DNA of 64,000 nt from Escherichia coli 042 (GTDB lineage: Bacteria; Pseudomonadota; Gammaproteobacteria; Enterobacterales; Enterobacteriaceae), in assembly GCF_000027125.1 (NCBI RefSeq), contig NC_017626.1. One strand, given 5' to 3'. The notes under the pieces were generated by a model that had not been told where the DNA came from, did not search any database, and saw only the letters and a program-made list of their open reading frames with translations. How positions within the stretch are numbered: position 1 is the first letter of the stretch; each line of letters begins with the position of its first letter. The translations under genes and the position numbers were made by a program. This document shows, in pieces, positions 38,008 through 64,000 of the stretch.

Positions 38008-41000
38008 ATGAGCAAACAATCACAGCATGTATTAATTGCCCTGCCCCACCCGCTGCTTCACCTGGTCAGTTTAGGTTTAGTCTCGTTTATCTTTACCCTT
38101 TTCTCGCTTGAGCTTTCGCAGTTTGGCACCCAACTTGCCCCATTGTGGTTCCCGACGTCCATCATGATGGTGGCGTTTTATCGCCATGCCGGGCGCATGT
38201 GGCCGGGGATTGCGCTGAGCTGCTCGCTGGGAAATATCGCCGCATCCATCCTGCTTTTTTCCACCAGCTCGCTGAACATGACCTGGACGACCATCAATAT
38301 TGTTGAAGCCGTGGTCGGGGCAGTGCTACTGCGTAAATTACTGCCGTGGTATAACCCCTTGCAAAATCTGGCTGACTGGCTGCGTCTGGCACTCGGCAGC
38401 GCCATTGTTCCGCCTCTGTTGGGGGGGGGTTCTGGTTGTCCTGCTGACGCCCGGAGACGATCCTCTCAGGGCATTTTTGATATGGGTACTGTCAGAATCC
38501 ATCGGCGCACTGGCACTGGTGCCACTGGGATTGTTATTTAAACCACACTATCTGCTGCGCCATCGCAACCCACGGTTGCTTTTTGAGTCGCTGCTCACGT
38601 TAGCCATCACACTGACGTTAAGCTGGCTTTCGATGCTGTATCTGCCGTGGCCTTTTACTTTCATTATTGTGCTGTTGATGTGGAGCGCCGTGCGCCTGCC
38701 ACGAATGGAAGCCTTTTTGATCTTCCTTACCACGGTGATGATGGTGTCACTGATGATGGCCGCTGATCCCTCCCTGCTTGCTACGCCGCGTACATACCTG
38801 ATGAGCCATATGCCGTGGCTACCGTTTTTGCTGATCCTGCTGCCCGCCAACATCATGACCATGGTGATGTATGCCTTTCGTGCGGAACGCAAACACATTT
38901 CCGAAAGCGAAACCCGCTTTCGGAACGCGATGGAATATTCCGCCATCGGCATGGCATTAGTGGGCACCGAGGGGCAATGGCTGCAATCCAACAAAGCGCT
39001 CTGCCAGTTTCTCGGTTACAGTCAGGAAGAACTGCGCGGACTCACCTTTCAGCAACTGACCTGGCCGGAGGATCTCAATAAAGATCTGCAACAGGTTGAA
39101 AAGCTGATCAGCGGTGAAATAAACACCTATTCAATGGAAAAACGCTACTACAACCGCAATGGCGATGTTGTCTGGGCGTTGCTTGCCGTCTCACTGGTGC
39201 GCCACACCGATGGTACGCCGCTCTATTTTATCGCTCAGATTGAAGACATTAACGAGCTAAAACGCACCGAACAGGTGAACCAGCAACTGATGGAGCGCAT
39301 CACGCTGGCTAACGAAGCGGGCGGGATTGGCATCTGGGAGTGGGAGCTAAAGCCGAATATTTTTAGCTGGGATAAGCGGATGTTCGAGCTGTATGAAATT
39401 CCTCCGCATATCAAACCGAACTGGCAGGTGTGGTACGAGTGCGTGCTGCCGGAAGATCGCCAGCACGCCGAAAAAGTGATTCGCGATTCATTGCAATCAC
39501 GCTCTCCCTTTAAACTGGAATTTCGCATTACCGTGAAAGACGGCATCCGCCATATCCGCGCCCTCGCCAACCGGGTACTGAATAAAGAAGGCGAAGTCGA
39601 ACGTCTGCTCGGCATTAATATGGATATGACCGAGGTTAAACAGCTTAACGAGGCATTGTTTCAGGAAAAAGAGCGCCTGCACATTACGCTGGACTCCATC
39701 GGTGAAGCCGTGGTCTGTATTGATATGGCGATGAAAATTACCTTTATGAATCCGGTGGCGGAGAAGATGAGCGGCTGGACGCAGGAAGAAGCATTAGGTG
39801 TTCCGCTCCTGACGGTGTTGCATATTACTTTTGGCGACAACGGACCATTAATGGAGAACATTTACAGTGCCGACACCTCACGTTCCGCGATTGAACAAGA
39901 TGTGGTGTTGCACTGTCGGAGCGGCGGCAGCTACGACGTGCATTACAGTATTACGCCGTTAAGTACTCTGGACGGCAGCAATATAGGCTCGGTTCTGGTG
40001 ATTCAGGACGTCACCGAATCGCGTAAAATGCTGCGCCAGCTGAGCTACAGCGCCTCCCATGATGCACTGACGCATCTCGCCAATCGCGCCAGTTTTGAGA
40101 AGCAACTACGCATCCTGCTGCAAACGGTAAACAGTACACATCAGCGACATGCCCTGGTGTTTATCGATCTTGATCGCTTTAAAGCGGTGAATGACAGCGC
40201 CGGGCACGCCGCTGGCGACGCTTTACTGCGCGAACTGGCGTCATTGATGCTGAGTATGCTGCGCTCCAGCGACGTGCTAGCGCGACTCGGTGGCGATGAA
40301 TTTGGTCTGCTGCTGCCAGATTGTAATGTCGAAAGTGCGCGTTTTATCGCTACACGTATTATCAGCGCCGTGAATGACTATCACTTTATCTGGGAAGGAC
40401 GTGTACATCGGGTAGGTGCCAGTGCCGGGATTACCTTGATTGATGACAACAATCATCAGGCGGCTGAAGTGATGTCGCAGGCTGATATCGCCTGTTATGC
40501 CTCCAAAAATGGTGGACGGGGCCGGGTGACGGTTTACGAACCGCAGCAAGCTGCCGCACATAGCGAACGGGCGGTGATGTCGCTTGATGAACAGTGGCGG
40601 ATGATTAAAGAGAATCAGTTGATGATGATCGCCCGCGGTGTCGCTTCGCCGCGGATCCCGGAAGCGCGTAATTTGTGGCTGATTTCACTTAAGCTCTGGA
40701 GTTGCGAAGGCGAGATTATTGATGAACAAACATTTCGTCGTAGCTTCAGCGATCCGGCACTTAGCCATGCTCTTGACCGACGGGTATTCCACGATTTTTT
40801 CCAGCAGGCCGCAAAAGCGGTTGCCAGTAAAGGCTTAAGCATCGCCCTCCCCCTTTCCGTTGCCGGTTTGAGTAGCGCCACGCTGGTGAATGAACTAATT
40901 GAGCAGCTGGAAAATAGCCCTCTACCACCACGGTTATTACATCTGATTATTCCGGCAGACGCGATTTTAGATCACGCAGAAAGCGTGCAAAAACTGCGGC

Positions 41001-41326
41001 TGGCAGGATGTCGGATCGTATTCAGTCAGGTGGGCCGCGATCTGCAAATCTTCAACTCGCTGAAAGCGAATATGGCAGATTACCTGCTACTTGATGGTGA
41101 GTTATGCGCCAACGTGCAGGGAAATTTGATGGATGAGATGCTGATTACGATCATTCAGGGGCACGCTCAGCGGCTCGGGATGAAGATCATCGCCGGGCCA
41201 GTCGTTTTACCCTTAGTGATGGATACGCTTTCTGGCATCGGCGTCGATCTGATTTATGGCGATGTGATTGCCGATGCCCAACCGCTGGATTTGCTGGTGA
41301 ATAGCAGTTATTTCGCGATTAACTGA
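38008..41326 (+). pseudogene. dgcE: diguanylate cyclase DgcE (MASE1-PAS-GGDEF-EAL), interrupted by a +1 frameshift in a G9 homopolymer at 38431-38439
   Basis: N-terminal ORF 38008-38541 reads ...SAIVPPLLGGGSGCPADARRR* while frame 38300-41326 continues ...VLVVLLTPGDDPLRAF... through the GGDEF (RLGGDEFG) and EAL regions. Deleting one G restores a 1105-codon reading frame. Confidence 0.8.
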
Positions 41327-60053: not shown

Positions 60054-60188
60054 ATTATCCCATGCATTGTCGGCTATCTGACATTATCTCTTCGCCCTGG
60101 CAACCGCCTGAAAATCGCTCATACTTTAATCGGTAAACAGTCCTTTTAGATGCTGTTTTCGATACGCAATTTCAATCAAGGAGTCATT

Positions 60189-60521
60189 ATGGCTGGTTGG
60201 TTTGAACTCAGTAAGAGCAGTGATAATCAATTTCGGTTTGTGCTAAAAGCGGGCAATGGTGAGACTATCCTCACCAGCGAGCTGTATACCTCAAAAGCCT
60301 CTGCGGAAAAGGGCATCGCGTCGGTGCGTAGCAACAGCCCGCAAGAAGAACGCTATGAGAAAAAAACGGCAAGCAATGGCAAATTCTATTTCAATCTGAA
60401 AGCCGCCAATCATCAAATTATCGGCTCCAGCCAGATGTATGCCACCGCGCAATCTCGTGAAACCGGAATTGCCTCCGTTAAAGCAAATGGCACAAGCCAG
60501 ACGGTGAAAGACAATACGTAA
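60189..60521 (+). CDS. yegP: DUF1508-family protein YegP
   Basis: Start trimmed to MAGWFELSKSSDNQFRF (ATG at 60189), 110 aa with two internal repeats. Confidence 0.85.
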   Translation: MAGWFELSKSSDNQFRFVLKAGNGETILTSELYTSKASAEKGIASVRSNSPQEERYEKKTASNGKFYFNLKAANHQIIGSSQMYATAQSRETGIASVKANGTSQTVKDNT

Positions 60522-60667: not shown

Positions 60668-62029
60668 ATGTTTAAACCGGAACTCCTTTCCCCGGCGGGA
60701 ACGCTGAAAAATATGCGTTACGCTTTCGCTTATGGCGCAGATGCTGTTTATGCGGGCCAGCCGCGTTACTCCCTGCGTGTGCGCAACAACGAATTCAACC
60801 ACGAAAATCTTCAGCTCGGCATTAATGAAGCCCATGCGCTGGGGAAAAAGTTTTATGTCGTGGTCAACATTGCACCGCACAACGCCAAGCTGAAAACCTT
60901 TATCCGTGACCTGAAACCGGTGGTGGAAATGGGGCCGGATGCGCTGATTATGTCTGATCCAGGGCTGATTATGCTGGTGCGTGAGCACTTCCCTGAAATG
61001 CCGATCCACCTCTCGGTGCAGGCTAACGCCGTGAACTGGGCGACGGTGAAATTCTGGCAGCAAATGGGACTGACCCGCGTGATCCTCTCTCGCGAGCTGT
61101 CGCTGGAAGAGATTGAAGAGATTCGTAATCAGGTGCCGGATATGGAGATCGAGATCTTCGTTCACGGCGCGCTGTGCATGGCCTACTCCGGTCGCTGCCT
61201 GCTCTCTGGCTATATCAACAAGCGCGACCCGAACCAGGGCACCTGCACCAACGCCTGCCGCTGGGAGTACAACGTCCAGGAAGGGAAAGAAGATGACGTT
61301 GGCAACATCGTACACAAGTACGAGCCGATTCCGGTGCAAAATGTTGAGCCGACGCTGGGTATCGGCGCGCCAACCGACAAAGTGTTTATGATCGAAGAAG
61401 CCCAGCGTCCGGGCGAGTATATGACCGCGTTTGAAGATGAGCACGGCACTTACATCATGAACTCGAAAGATCTGCGCGCCATCGCCCATGTAGAACGCCT
61501 GACCAAAATGGGCGTGCATTCGCTGAAAATCGAAGGTCGTACCAAATCTTTCTACTATTGCGCACGCACCGCGCAGGTTTACCGTAAAGCTATCGATGAC
61601 GCCGCTGCGGGCAAACCGTTCGATACCAGCCTGCTGGAAACTCTGGAAGGTCTGGCGCATCGTGGCTATACCGAAGGTTTCCTGCGTCGTCATACTCACG
61701 ACGATTATCAGAACTACGAATACGGTTATTCAGTTTCTGACCGCCAGCAGTTTGTTGGTGAGTTTACCGGTGAGCGCAAGGGCGACCTCGCGGCGGTAGC
61801 GGTGAAAAATAAATTCTCCGTTGGCGACAGCCTTGAGCTGATGACGCCGCAAGGCAACATTAACTTTACCCTTGAGCACATGGAAAACGCCAAAGGCGAA
61901 GCAATGCCGGTCGCACCGGGCGATGGTTATACTGTGTGGATCCCGGTGCCGCAGGATCTTGAGCTAAATTACGCGCTGCTGATGCGTAATTTCTCCGGGG
62001 AAACCACGCGTAACCCCCACGGTAAGTGA
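60668..62029 (+). CDS. yegQ: U32-family peptidase-like protein YegQ
   Basis: Start trimmed to MFKPELLSPAGTLKNMRYAF (ATG at 60668), 453 aa. Confidence 0.88.
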   Translation: MFKPELLSPAGTLKNMRYAFAYGADAVYAGQPRYSLRVRNNEFNHENLQLGINEAHALGKKFYVVVNIAPHNAKLKTFIRDLKPVVEMGPDALIMSDPGLIMLVREHFPEMPIHLSVQANAVNWATVKFWQQMGLTRVILSRELSLEEIEEIRNQVPDMEIEIFVHGALCMAYSGRCLLSGYINKRDPNQGTCTNACRWEYNVQEGKEDDVGNIVHKYEPIPVQNVEPTLGIGAPTDKVFMIEEAQRPGEYMTAFEDEHGTYIMNSKDLRAIAHVERLTKMGVHSLKIEGRTKSFYYCARTAQVYRKAIDDAAAGKPFDTSLLETLEGLAHRGYTEGFLRRHTHDDYQNYEYGYSVSDRQQFVGEFTGERKGDLAAVAVKNKFSVGDSLELMTPQGNINFTLEHMENAKGEAMPVAPGDGYTVWIPVPQDLELNYALLMRNFSGETTRNPHGK

Positions 62030-62063
62030 TTAATTTCGATTATTTTTCCCGGATGGAAAATTC

Positions 62064-62079
62064 TTAGAAACCGATCACA
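62064..62079 (+). promoter_or_regulatory. candidate CRP site (class II position) in the cyaR promoter
   Basis: TTAGAaaccgaTCACA with a good right half-site, centred about 42 bp upstream of the CyaR 5' end; -10-like TATCAT at 62101-62106. Confidence 0.4.
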
Positions 62080-62113
62080 TACAGCTGCATTTATTAAGGT
62101 TATCATCCGTTTC

Positions 62114-62200
62114 GCTGAAAAACATAACCCATAAAATGCTAGCTGTACCAGGAACCACCTCCTTAGCCTGTGTAATCTCCCTTACACGGGCTTATTTTTT
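62114..62200 (+). ncRNA. cyaR: CyaR (RyeE) Hfq-dependent sRNA
   Basis: GCTGAAAAACATAACCCATAAAATGCTAGCTGTACCAGGAACCACCTCCTTAGCCTGTGTAATCTCCCTTACACGGGCTTATTTTTT matches the CyaR sequence as I recall it, including the intrinsic terminator. Confidence 0.85.
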
Positions 62201-62522
62201 ACGCATAAGCCCTATCCCTGATAACCGTCTTCCATTGACCACATCGATAGAATCTCCCTTCATAGCACGATGCCTTTCACACAACGGCATCGTGCTCGCC
62301 CAGGTTCCGGCTACGCACAGCCAGAACGCGCATGTTTGACGCTTACCAAAAAATGAACCTAAAGCATTGGAATATTTTTGACATCATTTTCTGATGGCGG
62401 CATAAAATAAAAATGCTGCTTTAGTTTCATCTATCTGTTTGTCATTATTACTCACATTCAATAATGGTGTTGAAGAACAACTATCAGAGATAAAAATGAA
62501 TGTGTACATCGTAGTCTTGAAT

Positions 62523-62846
62523 CTATTCTCGCTCTCCACATTTGAATGTCAGACGAGCGACGCCATGTAATCCTGCACCTTCTGTCTTCAGGTCAACTAT
62601 CTGCATTTTTTTGCCCTGAGTAACACAGAAATGAGCTGCATCATTTTTTACTATATTTTCTGCACCAGAAATTCTGCCCCTGGCTAAAGAAGCTTCGGCT
62701 TCGGTGTAGTATTGGTTATCGAGTTTACGCTGAATATTACTTTTATATGCAAGACCAAATTTACCGATACTTGTCTCATCATTATGTACAGCACACCCAG
62801 ACATAAGAAAAACACTAATTAATGATATAGCAGCTATCTTTTTCAT
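62523..62846 (-). CDS. yegR: lipoprotein YegR
   Basis: Start trimmed to MKKIAAISLISVFLMSGC (ATG at 62846); lipobox LMSGC. Confidence 0.8.
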   Translation of the reverse strand: MKKIAAISLISVFLMSGCAVHNDETSIGKFGLAYKSNIQRKLDNQYYTEAEASLARGRISGAENIVKNDAAHFCVTQGKKMQIVDLKTEGAGLHGVARLTFKCGERE

Positions 62847-63249
62847 CTCACCTTCCCCCATTAAATACCAACGACACGCTCTGGTGTTTAAATATAATAA
62901 TGGCATGATTATTATAATTGAATAGGATTATAATAAATGTTCTGTACAACATTTCCTACATAAGTAGGAATTACATACACGGATGCCTTCCGGGTAACCC
63001 CATGGGGGGGTTAATATATTTTTAATAGTATATTGAAGATGCCACTGTTTAGTTGAATATTAGGTATATGCTCTTTTTTGAAATTTATCGGTGGCTGCCG
63101 TTAACATTCACTGTCCCCATTGCAAGCTCCTGGTGGTAACCACTGAATCCTCTATACTTGAACTGACTTTTTATCCTCCGACTTTCATCCTGTTCTGACT
63201 CCACCTTTTCTTTTCTGCTCTACACTATCTACAGACCAATCATAAAGGC

Positions 63250-64000
63250 ACATACGATCATGGCAGAATTTCCCGCCAGCTTACTGATTCTTAATGGCAA
63301 AAGTACTGACAATCTACCCTTGCGCGAAGCAATTATGCTGTTGCGTGAGGAAGGAATGACGATCCATGTGCGGGTCACCTGGGAGAAAGGCGATGCCGCA
63401 CGATATGTAGAGGAGGCCCGGAAGTTGGGCGTCGCAACGGTGATTGCCGGTGGTGGCGATGGCACCATTAATGAAGTTTCTACGGCGTTGATTCAATGTG
63501 AGGGGGATGACATACCCGCGCTGGGAATTTTGCCATTAGGAACCGCCAATGATTTTGCCACCAGTGTAGGGATTCCTGAGGCACTGGATAAGGCGCTGAA
63601 ACTGGCAATTGCCGGTAACGCCATTGCGATAGATATGGCGCAGGTCAACAAACAAACCTGTTTTATTAATATGGCGACAGGCGGGTTTGGGACGCGTATT
63701 ACCACAGAAACGCCGGAAAAATTAAAAGCCGCGCTGGGTGGCGTCTCTTACATCATTCATGGCTTAATGCGCATGGACACTCTGCAACCGGACCGTTGTG
63801 AAATCCGCGGTGAAAACTTTCACTGGCAAGGTGACGCCCTGGTCATAGGTATTGGTAACGGGCGTCAGGCCGGTGGCGGTCAGCAATTGTGCCCGAACGC
63901 GTTAATTAACGATGGCCTGCTGCAACTGCGCATTTTTACCGGCGATGAAATTCTTCCAGCTCTCGTATCAACCTTAAAATCTGACGAAGATAACCCGAAT
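63250..64000 (+). CDS. yegS: lipid kinase YegS (diacylglycerol kinase catalytic domain), 3' end outside window
   Basis: [18 protein letters not shown]... with the GGDGT motif of DAGK_cat-family kinases; ORF is open to the window end. Confidence 0.85.

Follow-up and report, generated by a model that had tools for sequence, protein, structure and literature searches.

Does a perfect inverted repeat between two divergently transcribed genes mark a site at which their expression is controlled? The question is raised by the spacer between yegR and yegS in a 64,000-nucleotide stretch of Escherichia coli 042 (contig NC_017626.1; the window), in which a sequence-only reading had picked out the palindrome TAACCCC-atggg-GGGGTTA, proposing it as an operator and its run of seven G as a potential slippage site. 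Read directly, the sequences and coordinates of the repeat and of the run proved correct, and a repeat search returned the same pair of arms. The annotation of the identical strain LC-1302-2020 confirms that they lie between the divergent genes yegR (minus strand) and yegS (plus strand), the gene ends of that annotation defining a spacer of 62847-63259. The 701-nt stretch around the palindrome is 100% identical to LC-1302-2020 and is present in 5,424 of 5,426 complete genomes, at a median of one place per genome. We find that the palindrome probably has no regulatory role and is a chance, lineage-specific form taken by a GC-rich patch of relic DNA that is unconstrained and prone to indels. The features referred to below are listed in Table 1.

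Table 1. Features of the yegR-yegS region of the window and its surroundings
Feature	Position	Strand	Description
CyaR sRNA gene	62112..62197	+	Rfam RF00112, 100.7 bits
P2-type att core	62174..62200		27 bp, in the cyaR terminator; identical to the junction of prophage record L169
E. coli-specific island	62201..63167	n/a	carries yegR, EvgA box and palindrome; GC 39%
yegR	62523..62846	-	lipoprotein gene of the EvgA regulon; from the annotation of identical strain LC-1302-2020
EvgA box TTCCTACATAAGTAGGAA	62953..62970	n/a	18-bp palindrome, one mismatch to TTCYTACANNTGTARGAA; likely operator
Variable GC-rich patch and AT-rich tail	62975..63040	n/a	most diverse part of the spacer; at least 3 alternative registers of pairing between C-runs and G-runs
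Perfect inverted repeat TAACCCC-atggg-GGGGTTA	62995..63013	n/a	7-nt arms, 100% complementary, 5 nt between
G7 homopolymer	63004..63010	+	C7 on the minus strand
9-bp segment TTTTAATAG	63020..63028	n/a	between TATAT repeats; present here, deleted in K-12/O157-type alleles
Degenerate attR	63096..63174	+	decayed copy of a P2-like arm and core, right end of the island
yegS promoter	63221..63233	+	-10 TACACT at 63221-63226, start site 63233; transferred from the K-12 start site, sequence identical here
yegS, 5' part	63260..64000	+	lipid kinase gene, continues past the end of the window

The palindrome is a minority state of a highly variable patch

We aligned the spacer from 11 genomes picked at even steps along the identity ranking, and added 99 metagenome contigs fished with an invariant 25-mer adjoining the site, which gave 107 usable sequences in all. 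Positions 62950-62974 served as the fishing pattern, so the metagenome set cannot vary there; the 11 genomes, which were chosen independently, show no variation there either. The perfect palindrome is present in two of these 11, and 62975-63030 is the most variable zone of a spacer whose mean column identity is 96%. Among the 107 sequences the segment between GGAATTAC and TATATTG occurs as 31 alleles, the commonest being of the K-12 type (35 of 107). Both the K-12 allele (TAACTCCATGGGGGCTTTA) and the O157 allele (TAACTCCATGGAGGCTTTA) lack the perfect palindrome as well as the G7 run. Column diversity peaks over 62969-63041, at 0.06-0.22 compared to 0.00-0.03 in both flanks, and the number of haplotypes per 60 nt is highest at the palindrome zone (26), with 18-26 over 62940-63150 as a whole and 5-12 in the yegS promoter and coding part. 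There is a further diversity peak, less pronounced than the first, at 63079-63118.

Exact alleles were counted in the 5,426 complete E. coli genomes using a 63-nt query seeded in the right flank. The G7 palindrome with its surrounding window sequence (63 nt) was found in 360 of them (~6.6%) and the TTTTTAATAG-type allele in 618. An identical 63-nt stretch in 360 complete genomes rules out an assembly artefact, and since each palindrome-bearing genome has exactly one copy, the palindrome does not belong to the REP/BIME or MITE-like repeats, which would require many. A 35-aa open reading frame with a TTG start (62918-63025) that covers the palindrome is broken by 1-nt and 9-nt indels in other alleles, and we do not consider it further.

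The palindrome can also be lost. One metagenome contig (L106) carries a 21-bp deletion, homologous to 63008-63028, which takes away the right arm together with the AT-rich tail, on a flank haplotype that is the same as that of the L042 allele described below. A divergent yegR-bearing Escherichia (L114) has the EvgA box and no palindrome. Since the right arm is gone in the one and the whole palindrome is missing from the other, the palindrome is dispensable. The sequence-only reading had proposed a comparison across strains as a check, and the comparison goes against an operator: the palindrome is not conserved.

The window offers many repeats of this kind. Counting perfect inverted repeats whose arms are 7 nt or longer and whose loops are 3-8 nt gives 64 for the window compared to 25 ± 6 in Markov-1 random sequence, and the palindrome is statistically ordinary, one of many such dyads. 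G-runs or C-runs that reach seven are fewer than expected, with 2 in the window against 4 ± 1.8. When the 46 nt around the palindrome were folded and compared to dinucleotide shuffles, the z-scores were +0.34 for the plus and -0.18 for the minus strand.

Regulation of the spacer probably lies at the EvgA box and at the ancestral yegS promoter

The spacer contains another palindrome, the EvgA box, which is separated from the GC-rich one by 25 bp on its left side and is 107-124 bp upstream of the yegR start codon. We take the EvgA consensus to be TTCYTACANNTGTARGAA, an 18-bp inverted repeat (TTCYTACA-NN-TGTARGAA) that reportedly goes back to Masuda & Church and Itou et al., and the EvgA-activated promoters that have the box include those of emrK/evgA, frc, yfdX, ydeP and safA. 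Searching 16 kb around evgAS of K-12 with this pattern gave four matches against 0.25 expected, all of them upstream of emrK-evgA, frc and yfdX. In the 64-kb window the best match is the box at 62953-62970, which is also the only one in the spacer. It is invariant in the 11 genomes and is kept as TTCCTACGTTTGTAGGAA in L114, where the YegR protein is 93% identical and the spacer 69%. EvgA binds the yegR promoter according to a review (PMC8147483), and yegR is induced along with ydeO and yfdX (PMC5811628). This box is the likely operator for EvgA activation of yegR. The two sites are alike in being palindromes of the same spacer, but the EvgA box is invariant and matches the consensus, whereas the other palindrome is GC-rich, non-conserved and dissimilar to the consensus. 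The functional palindrome of the spacer is thus the EvgA box, and the case is a caution that a perfect palindrome between divergent genes should not be taken for an operator unless it is conserved.

Mapped transcription start sites place the GC-rich palindrome away from the main yegS start and from the proximal yegR starts. For yegS the K-12 start site is 27 nt upstream of the ATG (PMC3415461 supplementary file 2) and further MG1655 starts are reported at 147-169 nt; for yegR the starts are at 43 nt in MG1655 and at 41, 58, 77 and 167 nt in EDL933 (PMC10469882 Table S5). The palindrome is located at -238 to -220 with respect to the main yegS start and upstream of all reported yegS starts; an attenuator in the yegS leader is excluded, as every yegS start (27-169 nt from the ATG) is downstream of the palindrome. 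From the proximal yegR starts (41-77 nt from the ATG) it is ~70-125 bp upstream, across the EvgA box from them, and the start site nearest to the palindrome zone is the allele-specific distal yegR start of EDL933. Regulation in the spacer probably lies elsewhere, at the EvgA box for yegR and at an ancestral promoter (63185-63233) for yegS. We note that the additional MG1655 yegS starts at 147-169 nt (63091-63113) coincide with a plus-strand promoter-like TTGAAA-18-TAACAT (63078-63107), and that these starts are in island DNA while the main start at 63233 is in ancestral DNA.

The palindrome lies in a relic at the P2 attachment site

We scanned one genome per species with YegS for yegR and found the gene only in E. 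coli and L114. E. whittamii, Escherichia sp. E1V33, E69, C. koseri and K. pneumoniae lack the island that carries it; in these genomes position 62200 (yegQ, cyaR) joins 63168 and, in the alignment, the cyaR terminator directly abuts the yegS promoter. The int end of a P2-like prophage record (L169) abuts yegR-region DNA, and the phage database contains the yegR region only as the host flank of prophage vB_EcoM-720R8 and in the short record AY639599.1 'Phage TP'. In a gapped local alignment 63096-63174 matches the int-proximal arm and core of that prophage (L169 3920-4000) with a score of 21.5, compared to 9.1 ± 1.25 for shuffles (0 of 1000 reach it) and 9.0 ± 1.2, with a maximum of 14, for 378 unrelated chunks of the window, and the same segment can be matched position for position to the cyaR terminator in the other species. 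The ungapped 30-nt core alone, set against 63145-63174 (18/30), is not significant, being reached by 348 of 2000 shuffles, so the case for a decayed att site is carried entirely by the gapped arm-plus-core alignment and by the collinearity with other species. The rest of the spacer on the yegR side (62847-63095) showed no phage similarity when compared by blastn, tblastx and nhmmer to the int-att end of prophage vB_EcoM-720R8.

The island is thus what remains, in decayed form, of an element that had integrated at the P2 att site of the cyaR terminator, of which the left att core stayed intact through selection on cyaR while the right copy decayed. yegR, together with its EvgA-dependent promoter, belongs to a ~1-kb relic delimited by a decayed P2 att copy at the cyaR terminator. 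This accounts for the E. coli-specific occurrence of yegR and for the alternation of conserved and unconstrained stretches along the spacer. The island resembles the P2 remnants at locH/cyaR, such as ogrK-yegZ of K-12, in its integration site and in having the att core and a decayed arm-plus-core copy at its ends. Unlike the ogrK-yegZ remnant it carries yegR, has no recognisable P2 genes and no similarity to a P2-like int, and is far more decayed. The window strain is without the younger ogrK-yegZ remnant between cyaR and yegR (62203-62522), which K-12 has (L001 1643-2155), and the P2 locH site is therefore unoccupied in the window strain.

No particular helix is supported

Every allele of the patch folds into some GC-rich hairpin, of -10 to -19 kcal/mol over ~40 nt, and the architectures differ. 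The stem of the window type is TAACCCC/GGGGTTA; that of the K-12 type is a long, G.U-dependent AUUGAGGCCCUU/GGGGGCUUUAAU (-17.3 kcal/mol on the plus strand, z = -2.7, and -8.7 on the minus strand); and in the O157 type CATGGAG/CTCCATG encloses GCCC/GGGT. We scored these three helix schemes for pairing on 28 distinct alleles. In the palindrome scheme two central pairs occur in 9 of 27 alleles, and 73.2% of cells are paired compared to 71.8% in shuffles and 68% when the scheme is slid by one column. The corresponding figures for the K-12 scheme are 81.2%, 79.6% and 80.8%, and the O157 scheme gives 81.7% with 81.3% in shuffles. Thus, for the three candidate helices and 28 alleles, covariation does not exceed that of shuffles or slid registers.

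Some alleles do look compensated, namely L017 (TACCCC/GGGGTA), L018 (TACCCCC/GGGGGTA) and the window group with its exchange of G.U for U.G. They count for little, because C-runs facing G-runs will pair in many registers anyway. Comparing the alleles in this way lends no support to a specific helix. Weak selection for a hairpin of any kind may nevertheless act on the patch, given the stable hairpin in every allele and the few that are compensated.

A distal yegR promoter fits the window allele poorly

The main rival to a patch with no regulatory role is that it forms the 5' leader, or the first transcribed stretch, of a yegR promoter that is distal and independent of EvgA, in which case its hairpin would affect mRNA stability or promoter escape and allelic differences would tune basal yegR expression. 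Where present, the 9-bp segment supplies the T-run of a terminator-like tail; its deletion creates TATAAT and a minus-strand promoter-like TAAACA-18-TATATT that faces yegR and, in the O157 and K-12 alleles, adjoins the patch. Shimada et al. attributed this promoter to yegRZ; it falls inside an RpoD SELEX peak, and the spacer carries a flag for H-NS as well (PMC3946193). The EDL933 yegR start mapped by Cappable-seq 167 nt upstream of the ATG (PMC10469882 Table S5) corresponds in the O157 sequence to the A after TATAATATATT, 3 nt before GCCTCCATGGAG and the homologue of the patch. From this start, the patch is transcribed in some alleles as the 5' end of a long leader, and the minus-strand folds of the O157 type are stable (about -15 kcal/mol).

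Against this, the promoter-like site needs the 9-bp deletion, and the window allele retains the 9 bp, a promoter scan finding none there. MG1655 has the deletion allele, yet only the 43-nt start is reported for it. The EDL933 data set contains a great number of non-canonical start sites, spurious promoters arise readily in AT-rich DNA bound by H-NS, and the three helix schemes showed no covariation. We therefore consider a distal leader unlikely as an explanation of the palindrome. A more ambitious version is distinctly improbable: that patch and 9-bp indel together are a selected tuning module for the distal promoter, whose alleles make or break the -10 element and either vary the 5'-terminal hairpins or place C7 at the start, with possible reiterative transcription. 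If true, each lineage would owe its own basal level of the acid-induced lipoprotein YegR to such a module.

A possible terminator between the two promoter regions

Read on the plus strand, the hairpin followed by AUAUAUUUUU could be a weak intrinsic terminator or insulator that halts transcripts from the yegR promoter region before they reach the yegS promoters. A simple, permissive terminator scan does flag 62995-63013, with 7 pairs and the tail ATATATTTTT, and there are plus-strand promoter-like sites at 62871-62898 (10/12 matches) and 62887-62915 from which such transcripts might come. In addition, the plus strand of the K-12 allele, owing to its G.U pairs, folds far better than the minus strand (values above). 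The scan, however, yields 2 sites in 2 kb, about as many as chance alone would give (1.7). Nor does any plus-strand gene or known sRNA have its end at the palindrome: a search of 61500-64000 against Rfam 15 at E <= 1 returned CyaR and one chance-level miRNA match, and nothing at the palindrome. Moreover, the reported yegS starts are all downstream.

Compared to Rho-independent terminators, the palindrome has in common the GC-containing stem-loop followed by a T-rich tail. It differs in that its stem is short and partly A-T, with 4 G-C pairs, its T-run is interrupted, and missing from the commonest alleles including the K-12 type, and its stability is that of shuffled sequence. We regard a terminator or insulator as quite unlikely. 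In the Term-seq supplement of PMC7815308 no entries for yegR or yegS were found. The hairpin does not stand at the 3' end of a transcription unit, there being no plus-strand gene or Rfam RNA upstream, and the T-run is deleted in the commonest allele.

Unlikely alternatives: an operator and a phase-variable switch

The idea of an operator came from the perfect 7-bp dyad between divergent genes, and it would now have to be an operator for a DNA-binding protein limited to the lineages in which the palindrome is perfect. No part of the spacer is less conserved than the palindrome, which is absent from K-12, from O157 and from ~93% of complete genomes, and thus unconserved among strains that have both genes and both promoters; the palindrome is absent from L114, where the EvgA box is kept, and deleted in L106. 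It is separated from the yegS start site by at least 220 bp and lies beyond the EvgA box, has no likeness to the EvgA consensus, matches no known motif and is one of the 64 such dyads counted above. We conclude that an operator is very unlikely.

The G-run does vary in length between alleles, being G5 in the K-12 type, G4 in L046, G6 in the L042 type, G7 in the window group, G8 in L018 and G9 in L072. The L042 type accounts for ~167 complete genomes and also has GGATAA where others have GGGTAA. As a slippage site the run is borne out only in a weak, evolutionary sense, by the G6, G8 and G9 of related alleles, but its length follows the flank haplotype and 360 genomes have exactly G7. The G6, G8 and G9 runs are found only on alleles that differ elsewhere as well, and only two of 59 flank haplotypes bear more than one patch allele, neither of them differing in run length. 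A phase-variable switch, in which slippage in G7 would alter spacing or structure and so toggle expression, is scarcely credible despite the related G6, G8 and G9 alleles, because run length travels with the flanking haplotype and with other substitutions, because exactly G7 is common to 360 genomes, because the tract falls neither in coding sequence nor in the -35/-10 spacer of a mapped promoter, and because contingency-locus tracts are usually longer than seven. With the contingency poly-G/poly-C tracts of Neisseria, Haemophilus and Campylobacter it shares a G homopolymer that differs in length between strains, but it is shorter, lies outside an ORF and a promoter spacer and is stable in length within haplotypes. 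To judge from the alleles, the G-run is an ordinary homopolymer polymorphism and not phase variation.

Probable origin of the palindrome by changes at run borders

Our preferred reading, a chance state of an unconstrained patch, suggests how the palindrome may have come about. The patch is composed of short C-runs and G-runs (GCCC, GGG, CCCC, GGGGG) able to pair with one another in several registers, and E. coli lineages differ in the substitutions and 1-nt indels that they have fixed where these runs end. In the window lineage the K-12-type GGGGGCTTT reads GGGGGGGTT, which extends the G-run to seven and, as a by-product, gives a right arm exactly complementary to TAACCCC. The base beside the run has turned to G repeatedly across alleles (GGGGGCTTT, GGGGGACTTT, GGGGGGCTTA, GGGGGGGTT, GGGGGGGGT, GGGGGGGGGT). 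Slippage and dislocation at the borders of runs are established mechanisms of mutation, and the run-edge changes seen here show the pattern expected of them. We infer that the changes occurred by replication slippage or dislocation at run boundaries and were selectively neutral.

In these respects the patch resembles mutation-prone homopolymers and quasi-palindromes subject to slippage, dislocation mutagenesis or template switching: substitutions and 1-nt indels are clustered at run borders, runs are extended by conversion of the neighbouring base, and lineages have perfected different arm pairings. The likeness is one of allele patterns, from which the mechanism is deduced here. A simple correction of an imperfect palindrome would look different, as the CT to GG change also puts two unpaired G in the loop.

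Other observations in the window

A more consequential homopolymer than the G7 of the palindrome is a G9 run at 38421-38429 (plus strand) that splits dgcE (yegE, diguanylate cyclase) into overlapping open reading frames in different frames (38008-38541 and 38300-41326). The 91-nt dgcE stretch is found at >=99% in 32 of 5,426 complete genomes; most matches are of 90 nt, with one G fewer and an annotated intact dgcE. The G9 could be a real frameshift produced by slippage or else an error of assembly.

In the identical strain the annotation places a ParD/ParE-type toxin-antitoxin pair immediately upstream of trhP (yegQ), at ~60100-60470 (L002 1-366). The segment 60098-60538, which spans about the same position, has 82-83% identity to E. 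whittamii and Escherichia sp. E1V33.
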